In this document: one piece after another, positions 1,251-43,423 of the stretch
Layout of the letters: each line of letters starts with the position of its first letter
Numbering within the stretch: position 1 is the stretch's first letter
Origin: a phage
Length of the DNA stretch: 45,885 bases
Assembly: GCA_021146325.1 (NCBI GenBank)
Contig: GCA_021146325.1_4321.1
Strand: one strand, 5' to 3'
Notes under the pieces: model-generated
The model's input: the letters and a program-made list of their open reading frames with translations, nothing else
Database searches by the model: none
Told to the model about the DNA's origin: nothing
Translations under genes and position numbers: made by a program

Positions 1251-1284
1251 CTGTTAATTTTGTCTTTAGCAATTAGTGCTATTT
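1239..1284 (-). promoter_or_regulatory. promoter cassette copy (IR TAGCACTAATTGCTA, 22 bp, TATCAT, CATCGAAACGAAAGAGAG leader) driving the ERF gene
   Basis: IR core 1267..1281; TAG of the motif is the stop codon of the exonuclease gene. Confidence 0.6.
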
Positions 1285-2584: not shown

Positions 2585-2880
2585 GAGTTACGTTTTTAGC
2601 CACTTAAGCCAAGCTATAGCTCAATGTAAATAGTGAGTATACCGTGTATACCGATTTTAGCGGAGGGTGCATAGGTATAGGTGCTGCGCAATACTGTATA
2701 AAATCACATGGTATAAAAATTATAAGCGGAACACTCAAGAACAGTAGTTACATGATATACAAGATATACATATATAATAATAATAATAAGAGTAAAAGGT
2801 TGATATATATAGATATTATAATGTAACTATGGCGTAAACTGGCGTAACTGGGCGTATACGATTTCCAGCGGATGCATATG
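2585..2880. repeat. AT-rich non-coding element A, homologous to element B at 28650..28935
   Basis: palindrome AGCTATAGCT at 2612..2621, (ATA)n core, near-identical 62-bp block 2766..2827 matching 28815..28879. Confidence 0.8.
2831..2860. repeat. three tandem 10-bp iteron-like repeats GGCGTAAACT / GGCGTAACTG / GGCGTATACG
   Basis: perfectly phased direct repeats read from sequence. Confidence 0.7.
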
Positions 2881-2912: not shown

Positions 2913-2958
2913 CAATAGCACGAATAGCTAAAACTAATACGCAAAACCCTGTATAGTT
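2913..2958 (+). promoter_or_regulatory. promoter cassette copy (IR TAGCACGAATAGCTA, 22 bp, ATAGTT) upstream of the methyltransferase gene
   Basis: IR core 2916..2930. Confidence 0.5.
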
Positions 2959-2989
2959 GGTCACACAAAAAACGAGAGAGGATTTCAAA

Positions 2990-3679
2990 ATGGTTATTTG
3001 GTCTTTATTTGATGGTTCAGGGCTGGCTGTGAAAGATTGGGCTGAGGCTTGTCACGAGTGCTACTGTTTCAACTTTGATGAGTCTGACCACGGTAGTTAC
3101 GGGGATTTAAATGCAAAATTTGAACATGAGAACATCACCTACGTTAATGCCTGGATAGATGGCAACTTCGACTTTGATGTGAAGCCTGATATCATTTTAG
3201 CGTTCCCGCCGTGTACGGATTTAGCCGTGAGCGGGTCAAGGCACTTTGAGCGAAAGCGACTGGTTAACCATAACTTCCAGATTGAAGCTGCGGAAACATG
3301 TAAAGTTGCTTTTAACTTGGCTAATAAGTACGAAGTCACATACATGATTGAGAATCCAATCAGCGTACTGTCATCACTCTGGAGAAAGCCTAATAAGACT
3401 TTCCACCCATATGAATACGGAGGCTATTTGCCGGAAGATGATTTACACCCGTTTTTTAGCGACCTAATAAAGCCAAAAGACGCATATCCCAAGAAGACAT
3501 GCATTTGGTATGGCAATGGGTTTAAATGGCCAGAGGCGATTCCTGTGGACGTTAACGATGGATTCTCTGACCAATACAAGAAGCTTGGTGGGAAGAGTAA
3601 GAAGACAAAGGTAATTCGCAGTCTAACTCCTCGCGGTTTTGCAAAAGCAGTCTTCATAGCAAATAGCACGAATAGATAA
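2990..3679 (+). CDS. DNA (cytosine-5) methyltransferase, short orphan type
   Basis: motif I LFDGSG, motif IV FPPCTDLAVSG, motif VI-like ENP, C-terminal LTPRGFAKA; ATG at 2990 has RBS GAGAGG (the ORF track began at TTG 2957). Confidence 0.7.
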   Translation: MVIWSLFDGSGLAVKDWAEACHECYCFNFDESDHGSYGDLNAKFEHENITYVNAWIDGNFDFDVKPDIILAFPPCTDLAVSGSRHFERKRLVNHNFQIEAAETCKVAFNLANKYEVTYMIENPISVLSSLWRKPNKTFHPYEYGGYLPEDDLHPFFSDLIKPKDAYPKKTCIWYGNGFKWPEAIPVDVNDGFSDQYKKLGGKSKKTKVIRSLTPRGFAKAVFIANSTNR

Positions 3680-3706
3680 AGACAAATCCCAAGGATGAGA
3701 TATCAT
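3661..3706 (+). promoter_or_regulatory. promoter cassette copy (IR TAGCACGAATAGATA, 22 bp, TATCAT, CATTGAAACGAAA) overlapping the methyltransferase 3' end
   Basis: IR core 3664..3678; motif supplies codons NSTNR and the stop. Confidence 0.6.
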
Positions 3707-3978: not shown

Positions 3979-4913
3979 TGGCTCAGGGTATCTATATAGA
4001 CCTTAATGACGGAAGGAATCCAATGACAATTACCTCAGGGATGAGGGCGTTAAGCTTCGCTGGAAACTTTAACGTTAATAGTGGTGGCTTTAGTAAGACA
4101 TTCTCAATTAAGGGAAATGAAGGTGCATCACGTTTTTTAATTCCTAATAATGGTGCCTTCAGCTTCGAGCTTGACAGGGGTGTTGAGCTTTATTATATAA
4201 GTGGATTTTCATCAACACCTACATCTGGGACAATCTCAATAGGTTCAGTGAATGGATATTCTGACAGGGTCACGTCATTTTCAGGGACTGTTGTTGAGGT
4301 CTTGAGGGCATCAAGCGGCCATGGCATATACGTTGCTGATAGTAGTGATTTTGCATCAATAACAACTGCTGACAGGTTGCTAGTATGCAAGTACTCTAAA
4401 AGGGTAACTTTTACAGGTTCATTCAATCTCCCTATTTATGGAATACCGTTCGGTAAGTGGGATAATGGTGGAGTTTCAGTTGAGTACAACGGAAGCAACC
4501 AGCTTATTTGCACAAACATAAACACAGTAAATACTGGGAACACTCCTGGAACTGTTACACTTGACTTGCTAATATTTCAGTTGGTTACACCAACGCCTGG
4601 GCCTGGCATAAACATTTTCAACTCTAACAATGTTTGCACATTCTCAACATTGACAAGACCATTGGTTGTGTCTGGATTTATAAGTCTGTCAGGAAGCAAT
4701 CAATACATAGGTAGTTCATACTTCCCAATACTTAGATGTGGGTTTAACACAAGGGCGATACGTGCTTACAAGGAGTTGCGAAATAAGGGAATTGTTATGT
4801 CCGGTGGATACGTTAGATCTGGTACTGGATCAAGGATTTTGAGATACGTTATTGGTAATAGACCAGATGTAACCATATCAACTCCATTGCCATACTTGCC
4901 TGATATGTATTAA
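3978..4913 (+). CDS. hypothetical Gly/Ser/Thr-rich protein of unknown function
   Basis: 312-aa ORF from ATG 3978 (RBS AAGGAG); opposite strand to the tail module. Confidence 0.55.
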
Positions 4914-4915
4914 AG

Positions 4916-4941
4916 ATAAAGCCCCTTTCGGGGCTTTTATG
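4916..4941. terminator. bidirectional rho-independent terminator (GCCCC-TTTC-GGGGC)
   Basis: hairpin 4921..4934 with T-run on plus and A-run upstream; between convergent genes. Confidence 0.7.
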
Positions 4942-7900
4942 TTAGAACGTTCCTACAATTACTTTTCCTCCATTAGGTAGGTTAACTGTGATTCCGTTTC
5001 CGTTAATCTGAACCGTATTGTTAGTTCCGTTAAATGCAAAGTTACCACTATCTGCGTAAAGCCTTCCATGAATTTCTGCATTACCAGACTTCTCAATCCT
5101 CCACCCAGCACTTCCTTGAACAAAGTTGTTTGATTGAATCGAGTTACCAATCTTCGCGTTAGTGATTGAACCATCCTGAATCACTGCGCTTTGAATGAAT
5201 ACCTGATTACCTTCAACTACGAAAGGCAATGACCACTGACCGGATCCAGAGCTAATGCCGTTACTGATTGCTAACCTGTTAGCATCAAAGATGACCTGAC
5301 TACGAACATTGCCATCAGAACCAGTTAGCTCCATACTCATGCCAGAACTGTACTCAACGCCATTGTATTTGAGGCCAAGTTTAATCCCGTACTGAGCACC
5401 AATTGAATCGGCAGTAACGTAAGTGTCCAACTTCTCATTTAACGCAGCCTCATTATCACCTAGCCTTGCAGATAAAGCAGTGTCCGCAGTGGTCCTTGCT
5501 TGCGTCTCTTCCGCTAGCGCCGTATCAATCCTTGTCAATGAAGCTACAATCTCGTCATCAATCTGCGCCTTAAGCTGCGTCAGAGCCTCTACGCGAGCCC
5601 TTTCTTCATCGGCGATAAGATTCACAGCCTGAACAAATTCGGCCCTCCTCTTGCCGTTTTCCTTCGTCATTCTACGCACGTCACCATCATTAGCCAGGGC
5701 GTTCTCAATTATTGATTCCGCTTGCGCCTGAATAGCTCCGTTTGACTCAATGGCATTCTGTTGGAGATACTTGAACCCATCTGAGTTTTCTATATCAACC
5801 TTAATATCACCAATGATTGACGACACATCATCGCTTGCCATACCCCTTACAAAATCAGTCCATGGTGAGACGTTACCAATCTTGTCAATCAGTCGCGCCC
5901 TGTACCAGATGACCTTTCCAGCAGGAAGTGTAGTATGCCAGTACTCGTAACTCGGGTAAGGCACCAGAGTCAGAAGGCTAGCATTCTCTGGTGTATAAGT
6001 ACCATCACCATTGTCGGCTACTTGCTGCAATTCAGTGTATGACGTATCGGCTGAGTTTTCAGGAAATCCCCACTTAACCCTAATGCCGAATATTTCATCA
6101 TCTGAAGCGGTGATTACTGTAGGTGAAGAGGGGGTCCCAATCTTGCCTGTGAGGCTTACTGAAACAATGTCAGACCATGCGGATACGTTTTCAGTATCAG
6201 AAACGGCCCTTACGCGAACCTGGTAAATTCCGGCATAGATACCTTCAATATCAACCTCTGTGCTTGCTGTGCGCGGCACGTTAATCCAGTTTCCGTTCTC
6301 CTTGCGCCACTGGACCGTGTAGGTTTTCGCGTACTGAACCTTGTCCCACGTGATTACCATTGTCTCAACTGATAAACCCTGAACAACCTTACTGTAACTG
6401 CTAACCTGAACATTCTCGGGTGCCAGTAATGTATCTGGCTCCACGATTGAAGTTGGCCTGTCCTGAATGTTTACGCCGTAATCAATCTCGTCGTATTTGT
6501 TCGGGTCGTACTCAACTGCGGTAATCGTGTAACCAAACGCATCATCTCCATCGCTGTCTGCTTTTTGAATACCGGTCACAACATATTGCTGAAGAGCAAG
6601 ATTTTCCTTATCAATCGCAAATACTGTGTCAGGCTGAGGAGTAAAGCTAAACGCTGTATTAAGTTGCAGCGTCATACCATCTTCAGATACAGATGCAATG
6701 GTCCTGTACTCTGGCATTCCATCAGGCTTGTTTATTAGAATCCTGTCGCCAGCAGTAGCATCAATCTTAAATGGCACAAAAACTTGCAACCCACTTACTG
6801 ACTCGATACGACCAGAAAGGTTAAGGGTGTAGTTGCTAGACCATGCCTGGTCATTAACTGCAATAACCTCACCAATCATTGGAATCATACCTTCCAGACC
6901 AGTAGTGAAACTAATAGTCTCGCTGCGAATGTTCGTCTTTAATAACCAGCGCCCGCGGCGGTTTGCCTCACTCCTGCGAGTACATCCAATAGCTGTAAGG
7001 TCGACCGGGTTGTAACCAAAACGCCTTGTTGCCTCTAACTCGAATACTTGCTCAACATCCTGTTGGTATGAGTTTTCAGCGTCATCAAACTGAACGTTGG
7101 CAACCGTGTAAAGTGACTTATCGCTACCAAATGTACGGTTGAACAATCCATCAACAACGTTGTCATTGGTGAATACGTACGATGGTTGACGCGGCTTATC
7201 GACAACAATCCCTATCTGCTCGCCGTCATAGAATGTCAGCCCACGGAAGATAGAGCAAATATCACGGATTAACTGATATGCTTCAACTTTCTGCTGAATG
7301 ACAACATCACACAGGTAGCGCGGCTCAACTCCACCCTTACCATCTGGAACCATCTGGTCACAGAATTGCGCCGCCTCATACAGACCCCACTTATCAATAG
7401 TAATGCCAAGCTCTCGCTGGTCAAGTCCGTAACGCTTATTCGTCACCAAGTCGTAAAGAACCCACGCCGGGTTATTGGAATACGCCATCTTAAAGGTGCC
7501 GTTCCAGGTTCCGCTGTAAGTCCTTGTCTCTGGGTTGTAGTTAGTTGGAACGCGAATCAACTTCCACTTCTTCTTGATTGAAATCGTCGGGATTCCGTTA
7601 GGGAAGAGGTCAGAACTGAACTCAACGTAAACCAGCGCTGTAAGTGGGTAGCGGAATTTAGCATCAATTACTTCCTGATAGGTCGTAATTTGCATGTCGT
7701 TAACCAGCGTCGAACTTTCTGAATCTGCCGTGATCTTACGAACCCTCACCAACGCACTCGAGAACTCAGCAGGAAGGTTAACCCTGATACTTCTGTCGTA
7801 CCCGCTAGTTGTCTTGCCATTAACTACTCCGCGCGTGTACTCAGTGTATGTAGCGCCATCAACGGACAGGTCAATCGCATACTCGCAAGTGGTACCGTTA

Positions 7901-14861: not shown

Positions 14862-14907
14862 ACTATACAGCAATCCGCGACTTAGCCTTTAACAAAAAGT
14901 GCTATCA
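14862..14907 (-). promoter_or_regulatory. promoter cassette copy (IR TAGCACTTTTTGTTA, 22 bp, TATAGT, CATCGAAAAGAAA)
   Basis: IR core 14890..14904. Confidence 0.55.
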
Positions 14908-14933
14908 ATAAAAAACCCTCCGAAGAGGGTTAA
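14906..14933 (-). terminator. rho-independent terminator after the major tail gene
   Basis: hairpin CCCTC-CGAA-GAGGG then TTTTTATTG on minus. Confidence 0.6.
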
Positions 14934-14945
14934 TTTTTATGCCAG

Positions 14946-18527: not shown

Positions 18528-18621
18528 TCTTGCTTATTCCTTTTCAGTTAGGTATGTACGAGTCAATTATACACTAGTTTGAGGCCCGCGCAATGATTCT
18601 ATCATGACCAAGCCGAAGGCA

Positions 18622-18650
18622 ATAAAAAACCTCCAGAAGGAGGCTTGTTT
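18622..18650 (-). terminator. rho-independent terminator
   Basis: hairpin CCTCC-AGAA-GGAGG then TTTTTTATTG on minus. Confidence 0.6.
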
Positions 18651-18664
18651 AATTAATGATAATC

Positions 18665-21063: not shown

Positions 21064-22324
21064 TGATTGTTACCTCTGTCTCAATTGAACCTTCACCAAT
21101 CTTAACCTCAGGGGCTAATGCGCGCAAGGTATCTCGTGCTTCGTCTGCATCCATCACGCCGTTAGTGATAAGAGCAGTAATTGAATCAACGTTATTCTTC
21201 AGTATTTCAGCGCGGTCTTTCTTCGATTCCTGAGCTAGAGGGTTAAACTCAACTGACCATTCTTGCTCGGTTGTGATGAACGGGATTAAGAACCCAAGAA
21301 CTGGAAGTAGCTCTTCGTTACGCTTGCGGTCAATCAACTTGTGGAATGTCTCTAGCGCTGTGTTTTGGCTAGATGATAACCCGCCAACGTTACGACCTTT
21401 GAGAATGATTTCATGGATACCGCTCAGAGCAACAATTCTGTCGAACTTCTTATCGAGGAATCCATCAATCCCACCAATATCCGAGTTAAGAACGCTGTAC
21501 TCTTCAGCTTCAGCGTCGATACCAATCGCGCGACCAACGCCAGAGTTATCATCAACCTGGGCAAGCCTCAACCTGGCCGCACCAAAACCTTCCGCGTCGT
21601 CACACAGTTCAGCAAGGCCTTTAGCCTTCCACACCGCCTGCTGCTTGCGGCGCAATAACTGAGTTGCCAGTTTCTCACACGTCTGATAATCCTTGATTGA
21701 TTCAAGCAGGTCAGGAACCAGAACGCTAGCACCCCACCCGTCATTACCGCGACGCAATGAACTAGGAATCTTCTCGCCATCCATAATGTGAACTCGCGAG
21801 TAGTGCACATCATAAAACATGGCGCCACCTTCTGGCGTGATGCGGTACGTTAATGGCTTACCGAATCGCACATTGCGAGGGTTTTCCTCCTTAGTCTGAA
21901 CTCTTACCTGGCTACGCTCATAAACGCGAAGTGATTCAAGTTCAGCGCCTTCACGTACCGGGCTAGTTAGCGCACGATTGTCCTTAACGATAGCCACAAT
22001 TGCAGAGCCGCCAAATAACCTCGCCCATGACCATGCGTCAGAGATTGACTCGTTAACCCTCAGGTAATCCCACCTGGACCAGAATTCACCTTCGTCATCA
22101 ATACCATCGATATGGAAACCTGCGGCGATTGCTGTCTCCGGTATGGTGTCGACGATGCGGCGTACAATTGAGTTTGATGCGTACAGTGAATCAGCGAAAG
22201 GAGGTGTAAGATACGTGTTGCCAAAGTGCCCGTAAATCTCGCTACCATCACTGGGGCCACCAAGAAATTGCGTGGCGTATGAATCTGCTTTTACCATTTT
22301 ATTTGCTCCAATAAAAAGCCCCAT
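21020..22324 (-). CDS. portal protein
   Basis: 434-aa ORF after TerL; probable start is ATG 22297 (MVKADSY, RBS GGAG) because 22317..22332 forms a terminator hairpin. Confidence 0.8.
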   Translation of the reverse strand: MGLFIGANKMVKADSYATQFLGGPSDGSEIYGHFGNTYLTPPFADSLYASNSIVRRIVDTIPETAIAAGFHIDGIDDEGEFWSRWDYLRVNESISDAWSWARLFGGSAIVAIVKDNRALTSPVREGAELESLRVYERSQVRVQTKEENPRNVRFGKPLTYRITPEGGAMFYDVHYSRVHIMDGEKIPSSLRRGNDGWGASVLVPDLLESIKDYQTCEKLATQLLRRKQQAVWKAKGLAELCDDAEGFGAARLRLAQVDDNSGVGRAIGIDAEAEEYSVLNSDIGGIDGFLDKKFDRIVALSGIHEIILKGRNVGGLSSSQNTALETFHKLIDRKRNEELLPVLGFLIPFITTEQEWSVEFNPLAQESKKDRAEILKNNVDSITALITNGVMDADEARDTLRALAPEVKIGEGSIETEVTINETSEDPLEVPADN

Positions 22325-22333
22325 TTAGGGGCT
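22311..22333 (-). terminator. rho-independent terminator closing the small gene 22356..22709
   Basis: hairpin AGCCCC-ATTTA-GGGGCT then TTTTAT on minus. Confidence 0.55.
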
Positions 22334-22355
22334 TAGTTTAGCATAGCTTTTATGG

Positions 22356-22738: not shown

Positions 22739-22784
22739 CTATAAGCCATCCTTGGCGGCGCGTCTTTAGCAAAACGTGCTATTT
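22739..22784 (-). promoter_or_regulatory. promoter cassette copy (IR TAGCACGTTTTGCTA, 22 bp, TTATAG)
   Basis: IR core 22767..22781; its TAG is the TerL stop codon. Confidence 0.55.
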
Positions 22785-25527: not shown

Positions 25528-25603
25528 TGGTGTTCCGCACTGGACTCGAACCAGTAACTAAGACTTAGGAGGTCTTTGCGTTATCCTGTTACGCCAGCAG
25601 AAC
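25528..25603 (-). tRNA. tRNA-Arg (anticodon CCU)
   Basis: 76-nt cloverleaf folded by hand: 7-bp acceptor stem, D-arm GCGT/ACGC, anticodon loop CUCCUAA, T-arm ACTGG-TTCGAGT-CCAGT, 3' ACCA. Confidence 0.8.
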
Positions 25604-28001: not shown

Positions 28002-28029
28002 GTGGTATGGTAGTAGACTACCATACCAC
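28002..28029. repeat. perfect 13-bp inverted repeat GTGGTATGGTAGT-AG-ACTACCATACCAC at the 3' end of gene 28029..28550
   Basis: read from sequence; on the minus strand the poly-U tail after it is short (UUUCGG). Confidence 0.7.
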
Positions 28030-28550
28030 TATTTAGTCTCCTTAATCATTTCTTGGTATGCGTTAATCATTGATACTGCACCCTTAAGTTCATCACCTTC
28101 AAGACCAGCGACGCTTGGTGATAGTTTCAACAATCGAGCCTTGAACCTTTCAATGGTAGCCGCCTCCTTCTCTTGCTCTGCCTTGCTTCTTGAGCCGGAT
28201 TTTACAGCGCCAGGAACCAGGCTAAGTGATGCGCAGTATGTCTCACTCTCGCCCTCAAAGTCGGTAAAACTAAGTGAGAACCTTGAGCGCACGTCAGCCG
28301 CCTTAATCTCAGGCATTCGGCTTACGGTGTTTGAAACGTATGACGCTTTTAGTTTTGGCATGTGGTATTCACCACCAGGTAGAACCTCCTCACCACTTAG
28401 CGATACGAACGTCTCACGACTCATGCCGAAGTATTGACGAGCAATCATGGTCACAGGGACTGTGCACACTTTGTCTTCTGACTTGAGCGCCTGACTCGCC
28501 ATGTATCGAATGATTTCACCCAAACTTACTGCTTCTTTATGTTCTGACAT
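28029..28550 (-). CDS. hypothetical early protein, first gene of the leftward accessory operon
   Basis: 173-aa ORF. Confidence 0.5.
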   Translation of the reverse strand: MSEHKEAVSLGEIIRYMASQALKSEDKVCTVPVTMIARQYFGMSRETFVSLSGEEVLPGGEYHMPKLKASYVSNTVSRMPEIKAADVRSRFSLSFTDFEGESETYCASLSLVPGAVKSGSRSKAEQEKEAATIERFKARLLKLSPSVAGLEGDELKGAVSMINAYQEMIKETK

Positions 28551-28649
28551 ATTCGTTACTCCTGATTGGTTGCTCTTCGTTAAGATGAAACCATGGTATC
28601 ATGAATATACGCGTTATCAAGTGTTATGTTGTGTTTATATCTGCATTGG

Positions 28650-28935
28650 TTACGCTTTTTGACCTCTCAGCCCAGCTATAGCTGGTGTAATTACCCTGTG
28701 TAAGATTTTACGCGGATTCGCCGGGGGTATGCATATGTATCTATATAGATAAAATTAGTAGTTTTCATAGAAAAACTATCGACCCATCCATACGACCAAT
28801 CTACACCATATACATACATATATATAATAATAATAATAATATAGTAAAAGGTTGATATATATAGATATTATTATGTAACCATTGCGTAATCTAGCGTGGT
28901 AGGCGTGTATGATTCTTCGGAAGCGCACCTCATAT
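28650..28935. repeat. AT-rich non-coding element B, homologous to element A at 2585..2880
   Basis: palindrome CCAGCTATAGCTGG at 28672..28685, (ATA)n, 65-bp block 28815..28879 nearly identical to 2766..2827. Confidence 0.8.
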
Positions 28936-29036
28936 ACACACCATAACTTCGATAACGTGTATATCCAAATTGGCTCAGCAAGAATCAAAATCAACTTGTA
29001 TGGTAGTTCATCCACCATTTATTCACCCTCACATCA

Positions 29037-29136
29037 ATCATTGCAAATCCCGCAACAATCAAAAACATCATTGCATTCGATGCAATATTGTTATATGTGC
29101 AATAGTAAGATTAATCATTGCAATATCTGCAATAAC
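29037..29136. repeat. iteron-like array: three ATCATTGCA and four TGCAATA copies, with perfect palindrome ATTGCAT-TCG-ATGCAAT at 29070..29086
   Basis: read from sequence; directly upstream of the first rightward promoter cassette. Confidence 0.65.
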
Positions 29137-29149
29137 ATATAAATCCAAC

Positions 29150-29195
29150 GAATAGCACTTTTTGCTAAAGACATTTAGGTATTGCGGAGTTATGG
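29150..29195 (+). promoter_or_regulatory. promoter cassette copy (IR TAGCACTTTTTGCTA, 22 bp, TTATGG)
   Basis: IR core 29153..29167. Confidence 0.5.
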
Positions 29196-29222
29196 TTCAC
29201 TCATCAACAACGAGGAGAGAGA

Positions 29223-29409
29223 TATGAAACTTAAAGACGAAGCATTTGAGCAATTAAAGCAGGAATGTGCGCTGATTGGATTGAACAATGACTATACTGA
29301 TATGGTTTTACGCGGACGCATCGATATCGACCTTGCTAAGCAATTCCAGTCAGATGATGAATATATGTGCTGCGATGGCCTCGGCTGCGACGAATGTTTA
29401 CCATGGTAA
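29223..29409 (+). CDS. hypothetical protein with C-terminal Cys cluster
   Basis: 62 aa from ATG 29223 (RBS AGGAGAGAG); ends CCDGLGCDEC. Confidence 0.5.
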
Positions 29410-29817: not shown

Positions 29818-29981
29818 TGCTTTTACCATCTGAGATAAACTATTTCGATCTGGAAATGATTAGTGCTTACAGCGGAAAGGGTTGGCCTTGCGGGGACTGG
29901 TTTAACGAGGACCTGCTTGAGTCTCACGAGATTATGTTGAAGGCAATTGAGAAGGCCAGAAGAAATAGCACTAATTGCTAA
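29817..29981 (+). CDS. small hypothetical protein ending RRNSTNC
   Basis: 54-aa ORF; 3' end lies in the promoter motif. Confidence 0.4.
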   Translation: MLLPSEINYFDLEMISAYSGKGWPCGDWFNEDLLESHEIMLKAIEKARRNSTNC

Positions 29982-30008
29982 AACTCACCGCCACGGATGG
30001 CGTATATT
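29963..30008 (+). promoter_or_regulatory. promoter cassette copy (perfect IR TAGCACTAATTGCTA, 22 bp, TATATT, CATCGAAACGAAAGAGAG)
   Basis: IR core 29966..29980. Confidence 0.6.
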
Positions 30009-30817: not shown

Positions 30818-32401
30818 ATGTTTGATTTCAACGAAGATAAACTATCTGTTGAGCAGATTATGGCAATCGCTGCCAATGACAACCTACCACCGCTTCGCGT
30901 GGCTATTAATGCCAATGGCTATCGACAGTCTCAATCGTTCTGGAAAGCACCTGTCGAGATTGATACAGGTAATGATAAGTATCCAGTAATCTCACTCGGT
31001 AATGATATTGATGTTGTTGGTAAGCTATCGGCTAATATCGCTCGCTCGGTTCAGTTCCCTGAGTCGTCAGCTTACATGCACTTTCTTGGTTGTGTTTCTG
31101 CTGCAATGCTTGGGCGTTTTACTGTCGAGTATCATGGAACCCAACAGCCAACATCTTTGTACGTGGTAACAAGTCAGCCGCCTTCAACTGGTAAATCAGC
31201 CATTAACTCGCTATCAATTGCGCCGATGATTGCTGAGACTGAGCGGTTGAATGAAGTACGTAAACGTGATCGAAAAAAGATTATGGCTAAACTGTCCGCT
31301 CTGGCTAAAGAGATGAAGCAGGAAAAATCACCTTCTGAAATGGCTTCACTTTTTGAGGAGAAGGAGGATTTAGAGGAGAAGCTCGAGAAGCTATGCGATA
31401 TAGTATTCCCTGTCTCCGATACTACTCCGGAAGGTCTTGCGCGAATCAACAATCGCCAGGGTAGTTTTGCGGTAATCTCTGATGAGGCTACTAGCGTCAA
31501 CTCACTGTTAGGCATGACTTACGGTGATGGCTCGAAGAAAACGAACAGCGAGCTCGTGCTGAAAGCATGGGATGCAGGTAATGTGTCAATTGCCCGTGCG
31601 AACGCAGAAAATAACATGAGCTTTGTGGCTATGGGATGCATCTCCGTAATTGCTCAGGATGAAACAATCAATGCCATTATGAATGCTGGTGCGCGTGGTA
31701 TTGGTGTATCTGAGCGTTTCCTTCTGGTGCGTGAAAAATCATTTCTTGGCGACCGTGTATTTGTTGATGAAAATGGTGATTCAACCTATGAGGCTATTGA
31801 TGGCGGCCTGAAAGCAGACTATTTCCGTCTTGTTCATGAGATTATGAATGAAGTTGAAGTGAAACTTACTGTAAGCGCGTCATCAATGCGTTACCTTAAC
31901 CGCGCTCGTCAAGAGATGGAGCCTCATCTTGGTGATGGTGGCAAGTATTCTCACACAATGTTGCGCGGTGCTCTTGGTAAGTTTGATAAGCAAGCAATCC
32001 GCATCGCTTCTGTTCTGCACGTAATTCGTAACTGGTTCTCACCAGCCGGATCCAGCCCTCAAAAGTCAAGAGAGATTGAACTGGATACAATGCAGGAAGC
32101 GGTTATGATTTTCAACGAACTAAGCAAGACTTATTTATCATCCGCTAGTGCTGCTGGTCATGCTGGTGACAATGCCGAGATGAACAAGCTGGTTGATATC
32201 CTGATTAAGCAGGGCAAGAATGGTAAAGGTGTTGTTGGTGTTCGCTCGTTGTATGAGGCTGCACGCAAGGTTAAACCTTTTGAAGGTCAGGCTGGAATTA
32301 TGACTCGCATTAAGGACCACTTGATTCCTATGCTTGATGAGAAAAACTACACATGCCTGATTGGTGATAAAATTTACATTAATCCACGATTGCTGGGGTA
32401 A
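30818..32401 (+). CDS. P-loop NTPase-like protein of unknown function, possibly replication-associated
   Basis: 527-aa ORF with Walker A-like SQPPSTGKSA. Confidence 0.5.
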   Translation: MFDFNEDKLSVEQIMAIAANDNLPPLRVAINANGYRQSQSFWKAPVEIDTGNDKYPVISLGNDIDVVGKLSANIARSVQFPESSAYMHFLGCVSAAMLGRFTVEYHGTQQPTSLYVVTSQPPSTGKSAINSLSIAPMIAETERLNEVRKRDRKKIMAKLSALAKEMKQEKSPSEMASLFEEKEDLEEKLEKLCDIVFPVSDTTPEGLARINNRQGSFAVISDEATSVNSLLGMTYGDGSKKTNSELVLKAWDAGNVSIARANAENNMSFVAMGCISVIAQDETINAIMNAGARGIGVSERFLLVREKSFLGDRVFVDENGDSTYEAIDGGLKADYFRLVHEIMNEVEVKLTVSASSMRYLNRARQEMEPHLGDGGKYSHTMLRGALGKFDKQAIRIASVLHVIRNWFSPAGSSPQKSREIELDTMQEAVMIFNELSKTYLSSASAAGHAGDNAEMNKLVDILIKQGKNGKGVVGVRSLYEAARKVKPFEGQAGIMTRIKDHLIPMLDEKNYTCLIGDKIYINPRLLG

Positions 32402-34168: not shown

Positions 34169-34214
34169 ATTATGCCGCATCTCTACGGCGATTGTTTAGC
34201 AATTCGTGCTATTG
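34169..34214 (-). promoter_or_regulatory. promoter cassette copy (perfect IR TAGCACGAATTGCTA, 22 bp, CATAAT, CATCGAAAAC)
   Basis: IR core 34197..34211; motif supplies the kinase C-terminus INSTNC and stop. Confidence 0.6.
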
Positions 34215-38220: not shown

Positions 38221-39930
38221 TCAATCCTCCATCGTAAATGATTTGTTGGCGATAATATCTTGAGACTTCTGGTTTTTACGGTGTGTGATTCTCAATGGGG
38301 CACGGAATAGATGTGCATTTGTCATAATCATTCTAGCATTACGCAATCTGCCAATTCTGAATGCCTCAGTCCTGTTATCGATGTGTGTTGAGCAGAAAGC
38401 CTTCCATTTAACAGAGCAAACGCGATGGTCTGATTCAGGGAAGAATGTTTCATAAGCTCGGAATCTGTCACCACTGTGAGCCATAACCTCATATGAAGCA
38501 ATAATCCCTGACTGGTTCTTTGTTAACCCAATCTTGAAGTCATAAACTCGCAACCAGTCCCCCTTACGATACATTTTTCCTGATAACTTAGCATTCGGGT
38601 CTATGAGCATCTCACCACAGCATCTGCAATTCTTAGCTGCAATATCATTCTTCTCACCGCATCCTTTCTTGATGATAGCTTTGGTCTGTGGGTCCGCTAT
38701 ATCTTCACACAGTCTAAACTGAAAGAAGTGCTCGCAACGCTTACCGTCAATTACATTATTACAACGCCGTGCGAACGGAGAGTTCTCATAAGAACATGCC
38801 GGGCATACCCTAGGTTCATCACCTCCTTTCCTTGATGACTTAAACTTCTGGTCCTGAACTTCTTCTATAATTGGGTCAAAGTAAAGCTCTGCCATATCGT
38901 CAAGCGTTCCGGCGAAATCGAGAACAACATGGTCTTCTTTTACCATCCCTGAATCCTTGTGTTTTTTCTTAAGAATTCGCATACCACGACCAAGCAACTG
39001 AATGAGTAGAGTAATGCTACCAACCTTCCTCAGGATAATGCTTGTATCCCACGGGGGGCAGTTTACGCCAGTTGTGAGGCAACCAATCTGAAATATGAAC
39101 TTATATTCTCCGTTAGCTGCCTTCTCAAGTATCTCTCTACGCTTCTTCTCACCAGTGGAGTTGGTAACTATCGCCCAAGTAACACCTTCTGGAAGTGCGG
39201 CTGCCGCCTCCTCGCAATGCTGTTTGCCAGCGCAAGTTACCAATGCAGCATTCCTTGTTTCCATAAACTTAGCAGCAAATCCCATTATCTTTTGTGTCAT
39301 CGTTTGGTTTTCGTGAATCTTTGCAGCCATCGCATCCATTTCTTTCTTGCTGAAGTCCTTAACCCCATCACTTCCATCAGGAGTGAACTCACTAAGGTCG
39401 TAGCCCAAATCACCAACTTCACCGTAGACAGTAGGAACAACGAACCCCAAGTCAACAAGGTAGCTGGTTGGCACTTGCATTACAGTTTTGCGCCAGAATC
39501 CACGGACATTTGGGTTACTAACTACAATGTGGTCGTTGTTACGGTACGGGCTACCAGTTAACCCAAAGATACGAAGTTCGCGACCGTACTTCTCCTTGCA
39601 TCGACGCTTCATTTCGGTAATGATTAACGTGTATTGCGCGCGACCAGTGCCAAGAAGCCCGGTATTCACACCATCCTTAAAGACCATCTCACCCTTCTTC
39701 GTGCTCATCTGCTCGAATGTTTCCTCATTCTCTTCAGCTTCTACGATATCCATATGGTCCACCATGTGGCAATTATGTGCCACGACCCCGTCAGCAATGA
39801 AATTATGGTGCTCAGGCATCTCTATATCCCAAACAAGTTCCTTGCCAATGGGTGAGATGTCTTTAATTTTGCTTGATTTTGTATTCCACGCCATTTTCCA
39901 TGTGCTTACTAATTCTCTTAAAAAACTCAT
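38221..39930 (-). CDS. SF2 helicase C-terminal gene: C-intein (53 aa) plus C-extein
   Basis: own ATG 39930 with RBS GAGGT; intein block G HNFIADGVVAHN then Cys; C-extein has helicase-like motifs GLTGSP and QLLGRGMR and zinc-finger-like Cys clusters. Confidence 0.75.
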   Translation of the reverse strand: MSFLRELVSTWKMAWNTKSSKIKDISPIGKELVWDIEMPEHHNFIADGVVAHNCHMVDHMDIVEAEENEETFEQMSTKKGEMVFKDGVNTGLLGTGRAQYTLIITEMKRRCKEKYGRELRIFGLTGSPYRNNDHIVVSNPNVRGFWRKTVMQVPTSYLVDLGFVVPTVYGEVGDLGYDLSEFTPDGSDGVKDFSKKEMDAMAAKIHENQTMTQKIMGFAAKFMETRNAALVTCAGKQHCEEAAAALPEGVTWAIVTNSTGEKKRREILEKAANGEYKFIFQIGCLTTGVNCPPWDTSIILRKVGSITLLIQLLGRGMRILKKKHKDSGMVKEDHVVLDFAGTLDDMAELYFDPIIEEVQDQKFKSSRKGGDEPRVCPACSYENSPFARRCNNVIDGKRCEHFFQFRLCEDIADPQTKAIIKKGCGEKNDIAAKNCRCCGEMLIDPNAKLSGKMYRKGDWLRVYDFKIGLTKNQSGIIASYEVMAHSGDRFRAYETFFPESDHRVCSVKWKAFCSTHIDNRTEAFRIGRLRNARMIMTNAHLFRAPLRITHRKNQKSQDIIANKSFTMED

Positions 39931-40910
39931 CTTGTGCCGACCTCGTTGTTATTGATACTGAGTAAAGCTCTCTCTTTTTCTTGCCGCCAATATAGCTTCT
40001 AACCTTAACTCCGTCATTAGCAATAAATGCTATTAGCGCATCAGCTACTGATTGAACTTCACGCCTGCTAAATGATTCGGTGTGGATTTCTACAACCCTC
40101 TTCCCTGAGCTTACAGTGCAATGACCATCATCACCAAAGTAAGCAGCCCAACCAACTGGATCAAGCTCTCTGCATATCTTTCCAATATCGTAACCATCCT
40201 TAGAATTTCCGTACTTATCAGCATATGAATCCAGAACTTTCGTACATGATGTTGATACGCAAAACCAGTTGTCGCCAAATCCAGGGTTTTTCTTCTCCCT
40301 GTATCTAGGGTTTAGTTTTGCAAACCTTTCAACCTTGCTTAGTGCGTGCTCCTTATTTCCAATATTCCAAGATGGCCTATGCGTTCCTTTTCTGTATTTT
40401 TAATCAAGCAACCATCACCAGCCATTGCCGCAAGAATGTTTTGATGTAAAAAGTCATCAACCTCCATTGATGGGTTGACGGTTGAATTATGATGCCCCGT
40501 TCTGTAATCCAAATAGAAATCGAAAGGGTTCTTAAGAAGTACGCCTAACCCCTTGCTTGAATGCGGCATAACTTTTTCACCACAGCCACACTTGCACGCA
40601 GGAGCTTTTTCGTAAATTTGTCCTGCGAGCCGTCTAGCGACAGATTCATCCCAATACAAAGTTTTCCCGCTCCGACCCAGCAGCCGTTCGAATAAAGTTT
40701 GTGTGTACTCGTGCATTTTATTTCCTCTCCGCTTTCTAATTTAATTGATGATACATGTCTTACACCATTAGTAAAAACTCTTTTTGGCTTATGATAGAAG
40801 TAATCACCAGTGCTTTCGTTTATGCATTTTATTTTATGATTGATAAGGTCTTCGCTATCAATCCTCATCATCCCTGAATCGGTGGTTATCATCGTGTCTC
40901 CAGTTAAGCA
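39772..40910 (-). mobile_element. split intein in helicase motif II: N-intein 40548..40910, endonuclease-like remnants, C-intein 39772..39930
   Basis: blocks A (CLTGDTMI), B (IKCTSTHKLY) and G (HNFIADGVVAHN-C); N-intein ends in a stop after 121 residues; intein DNA is 1139 bp, not a multiple of 3. Confidence 0.7.
39863..40740 (-). pseudogene. homing-endonuclease-like remnant split over two reading frames between the intein halves
   Basis: frame 1 ORF 40339..40716 (Cys cluster CKCGCG; ...AMAGDG...), frame 2 open 39863..40399 without a start codon (...IAFIANDG...); family not assignable by eye. Confidence 0.4.
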
Positions 40911-41354
40911 CTCATCTATCGCGATAACAGCAGGAGCATAGTCACCAAGCCCCTTAAACAAGCCGTTAGCAGCCGTTCCCTCACTAGCCACTATGGTTGG
41001 ATAGTAAACTGATTTAACGTTAAGGCCAGCGCAATAGACGCTATTACGGATGCCGAAATTACGAAGTTCCTCTGCGTTCTGGCTGATAATCTCTGACTGG
41101 CGAGATAGGACCATGTAAGGAAGGCCAAGCTGTTCCATTCGTTTCCCAATCATGGCGAGAATAATCGTCTTGCCAGCCGAAACCGATAGGTCTGCTATGA
41201 ATGGCGCTTCGTACTTGCCAATAGCCTTTCCGATTGCGTCAAATGTCACGCACTGGAATGGGTATGGTGTGATTTCTCCGAACTGATAATCATTTTGAAT
41301 CTGCTTGATTTTATCTTGGTCAAAGTTTGCTACTAAGCGTTCTACTGGAAGCAT
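40545..41354 (-). CDS. SF2 helicase N-terminal gene: N-extein (Walker A SVSAGKT ... IAIDE) plus N-intein
   Basis: 269-aa ORF; the extein junction would rebuild IAIDE-CHMV, a DECH box. Confidence 0.75.
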   Translation of the reverse strand: MLPVERLVANFDQDKIKQIQNDYQFGEITPYPFQCVTFDAIGKAIGKYEAPFIADLSVSAGKTIILAMIGKRMEQLGLPYMVLSRQSEIISQNAEELRNFGIRNSVYCAGLNVKSVYYPTIVASEGTAANGLFKGLGDYAPAVIAIDECLTGDTMITTDSGMMRIDSEDLINHKIKCINESTGDYFYHKPKRVFTNGVRHVSSIKLESGEEIKCTSTHKLYSNGCWVGAGKLCIGMNLSLDGSQDKFTKKLLRASVAVVKKLCRIQARG

Positions 41355-41394: not shown

Positions 41395-41440
41395 TATAAT
41401 AACAGCCATAGAACCCATTGTTTAACAAAAAGTGCTATTG
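41395..41440 (-). promoter_or_regulatory. promoter cassette copy (IR TAGCACTTTTTGTTA, 22 bp, ATTATA) driving the helicase gene
   Basis: IR core 41423..41437, only 14 bp from the divergent HTH gene start. Confidence 0.5.
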
Positions 41441-41450
41441 AGGTAATGAG

Positions 41451-41924
41451 ATGTGTGAAATTGACAAGCGAACTATTAACGGCAATAACGGGACCGTCCG
41501 CACGCAAGACAAGAAGCAACGCAAGCGACCTTCAGGCTACTACGTATTGAAAGATGAAGTAAAGGCTGGTCTACGCGCGCGTCTGGAAATGATTCTTGAT
41601 TTCTACGGCACGAAAGCCAATATCGCCAAGCAGTTAAATGTATCTCACCAGACTGTAGAACAATGGTTTAATCGCGGGATGATTTCGGCTCGAGGGGCTC
41701 AGAGAGCGCATAATGCGTACAAGCGAAATAAGGAAGGGTTCCGAGCTACATTCTGCCGACCAGACCTGCAATTCGACGGTAACGGAAAGCCGCTAACACT
41801 TCGATGCAAGAAACGCCATATGCTTCGCGTAGTTACCGAGGCAGAACTAGCAATAAAACCACCCTGTCGACCGTGGCGCAAGAATAAGATTGCTAACGAA
41901 GCAGCACGAAAAGCTAAAGGGTAA
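41451..41924 (+). CDS. Cro/YdaS-like HTH DNA-binding protein, putative transcription regulator
   Basis: HTH GTKANIAKQLNVSHQTVEQWFNRG; basic C-terminal half. Confidence 0.55.
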   Translation: MCEIDKRTINGNNGTVRTQDKKQRKRPSGYYVLKDEVKAGLRARLEMILDFYGTKANIAKQLNVSHQTVEQWFNRGMISARGAQRAHNAYKRNKEGFRATFCRPDLQFDGNGKPLTLRCKKRHMLRVVTEAELAIKPPCRPWRKNKIANEAARKAKG

Positions 41925-41975: not shown

Positions 41976-42455
41976 ATGAACTGGCATGATTATTTTTACT
42001 ATGTAGATGGCAAATTGCATTGGAAGATTAGCACTGCAAGACGTGTTAAGGTTGGCGATGAGTGCAACTCACTATCTACATCTGGCTATTACAAAGTGTC
42101 TGTTAATGGCTTTAGGACTTATGTACATAGAGTTGTGTGGGAGATGTTTAATGGATAACTTCAAAATGGCGACTACATTGATCATATAAACCATAACAAA
42201 TTAGATAACAGAATAGAAAACCTAAGAGTAACAACAAATCAAGGTAACTCAAGAAATTGCAAGCTTAGCGTTTTATCAACAACTGGTTATTGTGGAGTGG
42301 CAAAGCTAAATCACGGAAAATTTAAGGCTCACATCACGGTTGACGGCAAGCAGCTACACCTTGGTAACTTCGATACTCCAGAACGGGCGTATAAAGTAAG
42401 AATTGAAGCAGAGAGAAAATACAACTTTCACGAAAATAACGGGTTAAGCAAATGA
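41976..42455 (+). pseudogene. HNH homing endonuclease with AP2-like DNA-binding domain, interrupted by in-frame TAA at 42156..42158
   Basis: ...VHRVVWEMFNG [TAA] LQNGDYIDHINHNKLDNRIENLRVTTNQ...GYCGVAKLNHGKFKAHITVDGKQLHLGNFDTPERAY; same frame before and after the stop. Confidence 0.6.
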
Positions 42456-43375
42456 ATTACGATAAGAATGAAGTTATACCTAAGATGGCCGGATTGTGGA
42501 AATCATTTTATGTAAAGGAACTTGGTTGGAATGATAGACACATAAGTAAGAAGCACGGACCATGCCCATGCTGCTTTGGCACTGACAGATTCAGATTTAC
42601 CGACGAAATAGGCAGTGAAAAAGGAAATGGCGCGGCAGTTTGTTCGAAATGCGGAAGTGACTCCGGTATAGGATGGGTCATGAAGTGCACCGGATTGTCC
42701 TTCGCCGATTCAGTAAATTTGCTTGGTGACTGGCTGAACTTAACACCAATTGAGGTTATAGTTAAAGCAAACAAGCAAGCCTCGAGAACTAAGCGTTACA
42801 AAATGGGCGCTCAAGTCGACCATGAGAAAGTCCTGGAGGTTATGGAGAGAACTAAGAGAGTGGAATCGAGTCCACTCACGACATACGAGGGTATTTATGA
42901 CGCGTTTGGTTTTGATGTTGGTATAGCTAAAAATGGTTCAATGATTCACGCAATCCCTTGTTCGATGGTTTATGAAGATGGGCTTAGTGATGAGTTCTGT
43001 AACGTAATGTTTATTGATGAGGATTCAAATGTTAAGTTCCTTGCTGGTGATTACACTCGTGATTCTGTTTCCGTTATTGGTTCTAAGCAGGATGATAGTT
43101 ATACTTATGTTGTTGACAATTATATTGATGGCATACGTGTTCACCTTGCTACTGGTGGGCGCGAAGTGTTTGTTGCTTTCTCCTGTTACAATATGGAGAT
43201 GGTTATCCACCGCGACAAGTCAAGGAAGTTCAGAATTGCTTGCCGTGATTCTGATAGCGATATACTCGCTGTTGCTGACGATAGGGGTGTTGATGTTGTA
43301 GTTCCTAATGACGGTGAGTCATTTAAAACAGGCATACGAAAGAAAGTGTACAAAGCAAACGACTTGCTAAACTAA
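42452..43375 (+). CDS. DNA primase (zinc-binding plus catalytic domains)
   Basis: N-terminal Cys4 zinc-finger-like CPCCFG...CSKCG, 307 aa; upstream of the helicase in the replication region. Confidence 0.7.
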   Translation: MNYDKNEVIPKMAGLWKSFYVKELGWNDRHISKKHGPCPCCFGTDRFRFTDEIGSEKGNGAAVCSKCGSDSGIGWVMKCTGLSFADSVNLLGDWLNLTPIEVIVKANKQASRTKRYKMGAQVDHEKVLEVMERTKRVESSPLTTYEGIYDAFGFDVGIAKNGSMIHAIPCSMVYEDGLSDEFCNVMFIDEDSNVKFLAGDYTRDSVSVIGSKQDDSYTYVVDNYIDGIRVHLATGGREVFVAFSCYNMEMVIHRDKSRKFRIACRDSDSDILAVADDRGVDVVVPNDGESFKTGIRKKVYKANDLLN

Positions 43376-43398
43376 CCTCCTTCGGGAGGTTTTTTATT
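43374..43398 (+). terminator. rho-independent terminator after the primase gene
   Basis: hairpin CCTCC-TTCG-GGAGG then TTTTTTATTG. Confidence 0.7.
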
Positions 43399-43423
43399 GC
43401 CTGAAAGATGGTAGAATGAATTT

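Follow-up and report, generated by a model that had tools for sequence, protein, structure and literature searches.

Two homologous elements in an Rtp-like phage genome

The window analyzed here, that is, the whole 45,885-nt stretch of phage DNA in contig GCA_021146325.1_4321.1 (assembly GCA_021146325.1), harbors two homologous AT-rich non-coding elements, here termed A (2544-2912, 369 bp) and B (28602-28967, 366 bp), each delimited by alignment as a whole homologous unit. Element A, the recE-side copy, lies between a leftward recombination operon, which comprises a 64-amino-acid open reading frame (ORF; 2254-2448, - strand) and the genes for RecE/ExoVIII (1279-2250) and Erf (558-1250), and a rightward gene coding for a Dcm-like methyltransferase (2957-3679, + strand). 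Element B, the terminal copy, is located on the side of the presumed packaging site (pac), between a leftward operon of small early genes, the first of which codes for a DUF7174 protein (28029-28550, - strand) and which runs on into the genes for terminase and structural proteins, and a rightward operon; the gene facing B on this side is at 29182-29409 (+ strand), and the operon includes the DUF3987 helicase gene (30818-32401). The two elements are separated by 26.05 kb one way round and by ~19.8 kb the other. Among phage records, the nearest BLAST relatives of both regions are T1-like siphophages of the Drexlerviridae; the closest relative of the window is Escherichia phage ES, with ~96% identity at region B, followed by Rtp-like members of the Braunvirinae. 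Since the ends of the window adjoin each other in phage ES, the window represents the essentially complete, circularly permuted 45.9-kb genome of an Rtp-like phage (Drexlerviridae, Braunvirinae).

A previous reading of the window, made from the sequence only, had proposed an alignment of some 300 bp between 2585-2880 and 28650-28935. The similarity is real when tested against shuffled sequences, and the unit is somewhat larger than proposed, as given by the limits of A and B above. The local alignment of the core (2749-2863 in A and 28802-28914 in B, ~115 nt at 84% identity) scores 129, compared with 24.1±3.2 and a maximum of 43 for 300 dinucleotide shuffles, and a collinear left block (2544-2678 and 28606-28740) scores 28, a value that none of 300 shuffles (10.5±1.4) reaches. 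The middle part (~2680-2748) has diverged between the copies, and beyond ~2912 and 28967 on the right the only sequence common to both sides is a genome-wide 21-nt promoter-associated repeat that is described below. Both elements lie on the same strand and are hence direct repeats. BLAST with its low-complexity filter proved to be blind to the A-B similarity, and the copies in other phages were therefore counted on fetched genomes.

Anatomy of the elements

Read along the + strand, the elements present a leftward promoter, a TACGCGT-type palindrome, the left block, the diverged stretch, the core, further TATAC and GTTAC motifs and, outside the homology, the 21-nt repeat. The left block holds the motif GTTACG and a palindrome, which is AGCTATAGCT at 2612 in A and CCAGCTATAGCTGG at 28672 in B (2581-2621 and 28643-28685, respectively, from alignment and palindrome scan). 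The core is composed, in this order, of tandem TATAC-containing 9-10-mers, an (ATA)5-6 microsatellite, an invariant 29-mer, GTAAC and three GCGT(AA) repeats with a 10-bp period. The microsatellite is delimited by Tandem Repeats Finder (TRF) as (ATA)5.3 at 2774-2789 and as (ATA)6 at 28824-28841, and in the alignment its length differs by -4 to +3 nt among relatives, so that spacing across the tract is not conserved. The 29-mer, AGTAAAAGGTTGATATATATAGATATTAT, constitutes the longest exact run shared by the two copies (2791-2819 and 28843-28871). Palindromes, (ATA)n tract and near-identical block had all been listed in the sequence-only reading, and all of them are present. To the right of the 29-mer, A carries three TGGCGTAA(A)C iterons with a period of 10 bp (2830-2856, + strand; TGGCGTAAAC x2.7 in TRF, with GCGTA at 2832, 2842 and 2852), and both sequence reading and alignment place three GCGT repeats in B (28883-28907, + strand), at 28884, 28894 and 28903, with spacings of 10 and 9 bp. 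The pattern GCGT..GCGT..CGT is invariant in 14/14 aligned Braunvirinae copies.

The composition of the cores is extreme for this genome. In 60-nt windows their AT content reaches 0.90 in B and 0.87 in A, compared with 0.56 for the genome, and these are the most and second most AT-rich such windows, respectively. The least stable 50-nt duplex of the genome lies in the core of B and the second least stable one in the core of A, both ~5 standard deviations from the mean. The two regions also rank as the top two 500-nt windows for short palindromes, with 26 and 18 compared with 6.3±3.1. In addition, a repeat search identifies an imperfect inverted repeat of ~36 nt that bounds B (left arm 28602-28638, right arm 28932-28967), with z-scores of 8.6 (window) and 8.9 (Rtp); it is significant in phage ES too, but not in the B element of Msk. 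Its weaker counterpart in A, TATACGCGTATA...TGTAACT (2544-2576, with its partner at 2881-2912), is marginal (z = 0.6-2.6). Inverted-repeat ends were consequently rejected as a general or defining feature, being significant for some B copies only.

The 29-nt block shared by A and B (2791-2819) contains the sequence TAAAAGGTTGATA, a perfect match to the consensus YAANNNNTTGATW of the integration host factor (IHF), which reads WATCAANNNNTTR on the - strand, and an AT tract is found on the expected 5' side. The two predicted sites, at 2793-2805 within the block of A and at 28845-28857 within that of B (28843-28871), read TATCAACCTTTTA on the - strand and account for 2/4 strict IHF matches in the whole window, both strands taken together. 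The consensus is kept in 13/14 Braunvirinae copies, with substitutions falling mostly at N positions.

Conservation of the pair across the Drexlerviridae

We analyzed 11 Drexlerviridae genomes belonging to five lineages, namely the Braunvirinae, the Rogunavirinae (represented by AHP24), the Tunavirinae (T1), the Tempevirinae (TLS) and Webervirus (Klebsiella phage Sin4). Both copies were identified in 11/11 genomes, one of them upstream of the recE-erf-ssb operon and the other in the terminal non-coding region by the presumed pac site. The window and all six other Braunvirinae genomes present both copies at the same two loci, and element A is 77-87% conserved across this subfamily. The corresponding regions of T1, TLS, AHP24 and Sin4 no longer yield any BLAST match to the window, but the similarity between the two copies within each genome is significant, with scores of 66 compared with 24.6±2.8 in T1 and 63 compared with 22.8±2.6 in TLS, z = 15 in AHP24 and z = 51 in Sin4. 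Residual homology across lineages can be recognized in the GGCGTAA repeats and GTATACGATT common to A of the window and B of T1, the latter sharing the iterons as GGCGTAAT x2, and in the sequence GTGGTAGGsGTGTATGATT common to the B elements of the window and TLS. When all 60-nt windows of a genome are ranked by AT content, the cores occupy the first two places in the window, Rtp, T1, TLS and AHP24; in Sin4, for which ~38 kb were covered, each core is the most AT-rich window of its stretch. Setonix, a more distant phage outside the Drexlerviridae with a related RecE, shows no such pair.

Within the Braunvirinae, identity is 0.91 among A copies and 0.79 among B copies, and between A and B it amounts to 0.751 both within and between genomes. 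As the latter two values are equal, the copies do not homogenise and the duplication is older than the subfamily; each copy is under its own purifying selection. We interpret these data as evidence that A and B are paralogous cis-acting DNA modules, ancient and family-wide.

Both copies were described in the sequence-only reading as lying at a divergent strand switch, which holds for the window, where each of them is found between a leftward and a rightward gene, but does not extend to the whole family: the recE-side element is flanked by the co-oriented genes tspJ(+) and recE(+) in TLS and by primase(+) and recE(+) in Sin4. The element stays upstream of recE even without a divergent gene in these two phages, and the terminal copy of TLS is inverted relative to gene order.

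The short repeats that cluster in the elements differ between lineages. In the window, the two elements together contain 20/81 genomic copies of TATAC (p=1e-17), 11/77 of GCGTA (p=1e-7) and 9/119 of GTAAC (p=2.5e-4), and the equivalent enrichment concerns ATCTTAC in Sin4 (12/18 copies, p=4e-15), TGTAAC in T1 (9/24, p=4e-9) and GAACA in TLS (14/134, p=5e-6). The motifs occur in both orientations in Sin4 and T1, and those of Sin4 flank the AT core on both sides. Because the clustered motif changes with the lineage, a phage-encoded sequence-specific protein is favoured over a host factor as the putative binder. T1-family phages encode a primase similar to the P4 alpha protein, a DUF3987 helicase and SSB, and no polymerase; candidates for the binder are the conserved Cro/CI-type helix-turn-helix (HTH) protein of 157 amino acids encoded beside the primase gene (41451-41924) and the N-terminal part of the DUF3987 helicase, for which a search of solved structures returned no match.

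No coding or RNA signal was found. Variable columns are distributed 66/57/60 over codon positions and ORFs differ between orthologues, which led us to reject a coding function; where records carry annotated coding sequences across the region (Ec3a_41, rtp46 and bas02_0027), these amount to non-conserved N-terminal extensions or additional ORFs. At the gathering score, Rfam models identify only a tRNA; at an E-value threshold region A is left without a match, and the one match in region B, to OrzO-P, is weak, sub-threshold and outside the element (29062-29139, E=0.73, 21 bits compared with a gathering score of 60). The RNAalifold consensus of the left block on the + strand reaches -4.4 kcal/mol over 154 columns, that is, no conserved structure, and z-scores of single-strand folding between -0.9 and +1.0 likewise reveal no RNA structure.

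A putative role as paired replication origins

The replication origin of T1-like phages has been reported as not found (PMC7718038; PMC11447400). The elements combine the most meltable tract of the genome, an AT microsatellite, helically phased direct repeats beside it and flanking lineage-specific motifs clustered in both copies, with tolerance of changes in spacing and orientation and with two copies conserved in five lineages. Origins of the iteron type are typically built in this way, and the suggestion of replication origins in the sequence-only reading fits it well. Variable spacing across the microsatellite and an inverted terminal copy in TLS would be tolerable for an unwinding element, but awkward for the geometry of a promoter or activator. 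On these grounds we tentatively read A and B as replication origins of the phage organised like oriL and oriR of SPP1, with a confidence that falls somewhat short of even, and we consider them the best candidates so far for the unmapped origins of the family, a role in early-gene control being also possible.

From these features we infer protein binding, IHF binding, melting and replication initiation at the elements, and a plausible sequence of events may be outlined. A phage-encoded sequence-specific protein, which could be the HTH protein or the N-terminus of the DUF3987 helicase, would bind the short repeats on both sides of the core, these being in the present phage the 10-bp-phased GCGTA iterons together with the TATAC and GTTAC motifs. 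In the Braunvirinae, IHF would bend the DNA at its invariant site, the (ATA)n/TATATATA tract, as the least stable duplex of the genome, would melt, and loading of the phage helicase and of the P4-alpha-like primase (42452-43375) would follow, with synthesis carried out by the host DNA polymerase III. The recE-side copy might then act either as a second initiation site or as a bound roadblock setting off concatemer synthesis that depends on recombination, a role that has been proposed for SPP1 oriR.

The likeness to SPP1 lies in organisation. SPP1 has two origins of similar layout, with direct repeats as well as an unwinding element rich in AT (PMC6316719), and it is, like the T1 family, a pac-type siphophage, with ~44 kb of DNA, in which the origins are among the strongest AT islands and one copy is non-coding (PMC6316719; PMC3485210). 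Its second origin copy has been proposed to stall forks and thereby to induce concatemer synthesis that depends on recombination and involves a 5'-3' exonuclease together with an annealing protein and SSB (PMC6316719; PMC3485210). In a similar manner, the present phage has two similar modules made of AT-rich DNA and repeats, one of them directly upstream of recE-erf-ssb, and the location of A at the head of this operon and of B by pac in the terminal redundancy would fit a two-origin scheme. There is, however, no sequence similarity between the two systems, and no homologue of gp38 was identified here; oriL lies inside the initiator gene, whereas both copies described here are intergenic, and origin function is demonstrated in SPP1 and a candidate function in our case. 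Satellite phage P4 offers a further parallel: its primase-helicase, the alpha protein, binds short iterons that are common to two separated cis elements, ori and crr, and annotation of the T1-family primase points to similarity with alpha primases of the P4 type. In P4, nonetheless, a single protein combines primase, helicase and origin binding, whereas here primase, DUF3987 helicase and HTH protein are encoded by separate genes. A more elaborate version of the scheme, which we regard as fairly unlikely in its entirety, would have the two paralogous origins share the work as in SPP1, the terminal-redundancy copy acting by pac and the copy at the head of recE-erf-ssb serving as an initiator-bound roadblock or second origin that switches replication to recombination-dependent concatemer synthesis, with the repeats (GTAAC/GCGTA/TATAC, TGTAAC, GAACA and ATCTTAC) tracking co-evolution with a so far unrecognised phage initiator.

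A search of the accessible literature did not turn up any account of the paired element. T1 belongs to the seven classical T phages, and the Drexlerviridae are very common coliphages and notorious fermenter contaminants. The elements turn the question of where T1 starts replicating into two exact coordinates. Should they be origins, they would enable phage-dependent replicons and resistance plasmids based on origin decoys against T1-like contaminants, and the two-origin layout of SPP1 would be present in an unrelated phage family of Gram-negative hosts; should they be operator platforms instead, they would pinpoint the switch by which the early and recombination genes are timed.

Possible transcriptional control and other explanations

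A number of observations weigh against an origin function. AT-rich DNA, an IHF site, palindromes and repeated operators would equally fit a transcriptional control region; both copies are found directly upstream of early promoters of the sigma-70 type (28620->28593 at B; P01 at 523-549 in TLS), and the A-B homology reaches into the promoter region at B. The repeats could not be linked to any phage protein, and the promoter region of the HTH gene itself lacks the motifs. GC skew keeps its sign across the recE-side element where transcription is co-oriented, as in TLS and Sin4; in the window it follows transcription, and with no sign change in those two phages it was rejected as an origin signal. 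In linear virion DNA, only ~0.2 kb would separate B from the pac end, and a bidirectional origin would be oddly situated there if circularisation or concatemer formation did not come first. Lastly, no IHF consensus is present at the equivalent place in T1, TLS or AHP24, the aligned core of which has AATAAGGGTTTGGAGT. For this reason IHF would be at most an accessory factor specific to the Braunvirinae, acting at a predicted site, and it was rejected as a universal factor. IHF-assisted cis sites are well known in phages, as exemplified by I1 of lambda cosB and by the IHF sites of the Mu and lambda early promoters, and the sites reported here resemble them in having a WATCAANNNNTTR match with a flanking AT tract amid repeated protein-binding sites, but they differ in being candidate sites whose consensus is kept in the Braunvirinae only.

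The main rival reading is that the elements are operator and architectural platforms which time the adjacent early operons, bringing together bent AT-rich DNA, binding sites of a phage regulator and, in the Braunvirinae, IHF, with leftward promoters that lack the 21-nt repeat and rightward ones that carry it, and which do not initiate replication. The density of short palindromes in the two regions, the Rha-family DNA-binding genes that adjoin A in CEB_EC3a and AHP24, and the recE-side copy of Sin4, which is inverted together with its operon and so keeps its orientation relative to it, would all agree with such a role. Yet the distance of 190-280 bp by which the AT core lies upstream of the proximal -35 exceeds what an UP element would allow, microsatellite changes of -4 to +3 nt would break helical phasing with a promoter, the terminal copy of TLS does not follow the gene order, and the two operons served do not share a homologous first gene. 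A sigma-70 promoter that is strong or conserved is missing from the core itself: the number of sites in consensus scans does not exceed that in shuffled sequences, and a position weight matrix (PWM) scan detects only the leftward promoter at the edge of B and weak, non-conserved core sites, with no -35/-10 pairs facing both ways inside the shared sequence, so that an internal promoter was rejected. Of the interpretation in the sequence-only reading, two homologous, selectively conserved non-coding elements of the control type are supported. The identifiable promoters flank the shared core instead of residing in it, and a conserved hub facing both ways was discarded in view of the co-oriented genes around the recE-side copy of TLS and Sin4. 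Altogether we deem transcriptional control without replication initiation possible, if rather doubtful. Phages such as T4, with oriF and oriG, and T7, with its primary origin, combine both functions in transcription-activated origins, in which a nearby promoter drives opening or priming. The same might be envisaged for the AT-rich elements described here, given that promoters flank both copies and that TTGGAT-17-TATGGT (28968->28940), which resembles a weak leftward promoter, faces into B; this inward-pointing site is weak, though, and has no counterpart in A, and we judge the combination quite unlikely.

The remaining explanations fare worse than a role in replication or transcription. Packaging by the small terminase would make the shared module part of pac recognition, with IHF acting as in lambda cosB and A serving as a secondary pac site. 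B is indeed found 70-200 bp from a conserved non-coding block at 28985-29140, which holds seven TGCAAT/ATTGCA motifs and the palindrome ATTGCATTCGATGCAAT (29070-29086); the start of the Rtp record maps into it at ~29090, and position 1 of T1 begins at the analogous palindrome GTTGCATGGTGTGCAAC, which makes this block the likely pac, or terminase recognition and cleavage region. The block, however, is unique to B, a single pac site has been described for T1 and TLS (PMC11447400), and A sits in mid-genome, upstream of recE in every lineage. As both record starts map to the block on the right of B, the shared core was rejected as pac itself, and a packaging function of the pair seems very improbable. 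The sequence-only reading had further considered recombination between the copies, which might invert or delete the 26-kb segment between them, and one could also conceive of them as entry sites for RecE and Erf; the 29-nt identical run, the ~115 nt at 84% identity and the proximity of A to recE-erf-ssb speak for such a use. In direct orientation, nevertheless, exchange would delete or duplicate the intervening segment, with loss of essential genes, and could not invert it, and the equal A-B identity within and between genomes leaves no trace of sequence exchange or concerted evolution, making recombination substrates or hotspots an extremely unlikely explanation. We would give just as little credence to a domesticated or relic mobile element resembling a miniature inverted-repeat transposable element (MITE), or to an unrecognised small gene or non-coding RNA. 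The inverted repeats that bound B and the near-equal lengths of both units are reminiscent of a MITE, but those repeats are not significant in A or in the B element of Msk, both loci are occupied in all 11 Drexlerviridae genomes without presence/absence polymorphism, and BLAST searches of 5,426 E. coli genomes and of 72,556 plasmids retrieve no copy, by which a MITE or origin of host or plasmid descent was rejected. A hidden gene or RNA could be invoked on account of the coding sequences annotated in some records, and is contradicted by the lack of codon periodicity, the inconsistent ORFs, the feeble consensus RNA fold and the lack of any Rfam match in the elements.

Flanking promoters and other features of the genome

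The leftward early operon next to B appears to be transcribed from a sigma-70 promoter at the left edge of the element (28593-28620, - strand), TTGATA-16-TACCAT with a TG motif and a PWM score of 11.5, and we would place a weaker counterpart for A at ~2488-2517. A duplication that included the first gene of the operon was rejected, the 64-amino-acid and DUF7174 proteins being unrelated. Rightward genes, in turn, are headed by the family-wide promoter-associated repeat of 21 nt, located by motif scan outside the homology at 2915-2932 (+ strand), on the right of A, and at 29152-29169 (+ strand), on the right of B, where it heads the operon with the DUF3987 helicase gene. The 21-nt repeat of T1-like phages, aaATAGCACnnnTTGnTAAAA, has been described for TLS, with its function unknown (PMC11447400). 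It is, like A and B, a family-wide non-coding motif, and one copy flanks each element on the right, but it differs from them in sequence, in its 15 oriented copies upstream of genes and in lying outside the A/B homology. The motif ATAGCACnnnTnGCTAAA occurs 15 times in the genome of the window, compared with 0.43 copies expected, and is always oriented with the downstream genes; examples besides those next to A and B are found at 1265-1282(-), 3663-3680(+), 22765-22782(-), 29965-29982(+), 34195-34212(-) and 41421-41438(-). At several of the sites the motif is followed by a weak -35/-10 and by the conserved leader CCATCGAAACGAAAGAGAG. As the leftward promoters by A and B lack the 21-nt repeat, the data suggest two promoter classes, perhaps early as opposed to middle or late.

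The right flank of A has the look of an accessory-gene hotspot, since the locus differs among relatives (2957-3679 in the window, 2252-2899 in L001 and 22816-23445 in L022). The adjoining gene codes for a Dcm-like methyltransferase in the window and in JeanPiccard and for a DNA-binding protein of the Rha family in CEB_EC3a, and in AHP24 a gene of this family is found on the recE side. In phage phi80, the rha gene is linked to IHF-deficient hosts, according to the Pfam summary for the family. The genome is also strongly depleted of GATC: its 45.9 kb hold 29 sites, all of them outside regions A and B, in contrast to the Dam-methylated T1 and TLS, which have >200 such sites.

Elsewhere in the window, a tRNA-Arg gene (anticodon CCT) is located at 25528-25603(-), as in other Rtp-like and in Rogue1-like phages. 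The homologue of the T1 gp22 helicase (region 38221-41354, - strand) is split into two ORFs, at 40545-41354 and 38221-39930, which show weak sub-threshold matches to intein splicing regions, the first ORF at its end to the N-terminal part of the profile and the second at its start to the C-terminal part. The gap between them, of ~614 nt, contains no long ORF and a degenerate 21-nt promoter repeat at 40016-40033, and the arrangement may possibly reflect a split or decayed intein. A family of near-identical GC-hairpins resembling terminators (AATAAAAAACCnCC...GGnGG) is found between operons, at 60-98, 4909-4947, 14906-14936, 18617-18651, 22309-22343 and 43365-43402, and some of its copies are placed back-to-back in the manner of bidirectional terminators.

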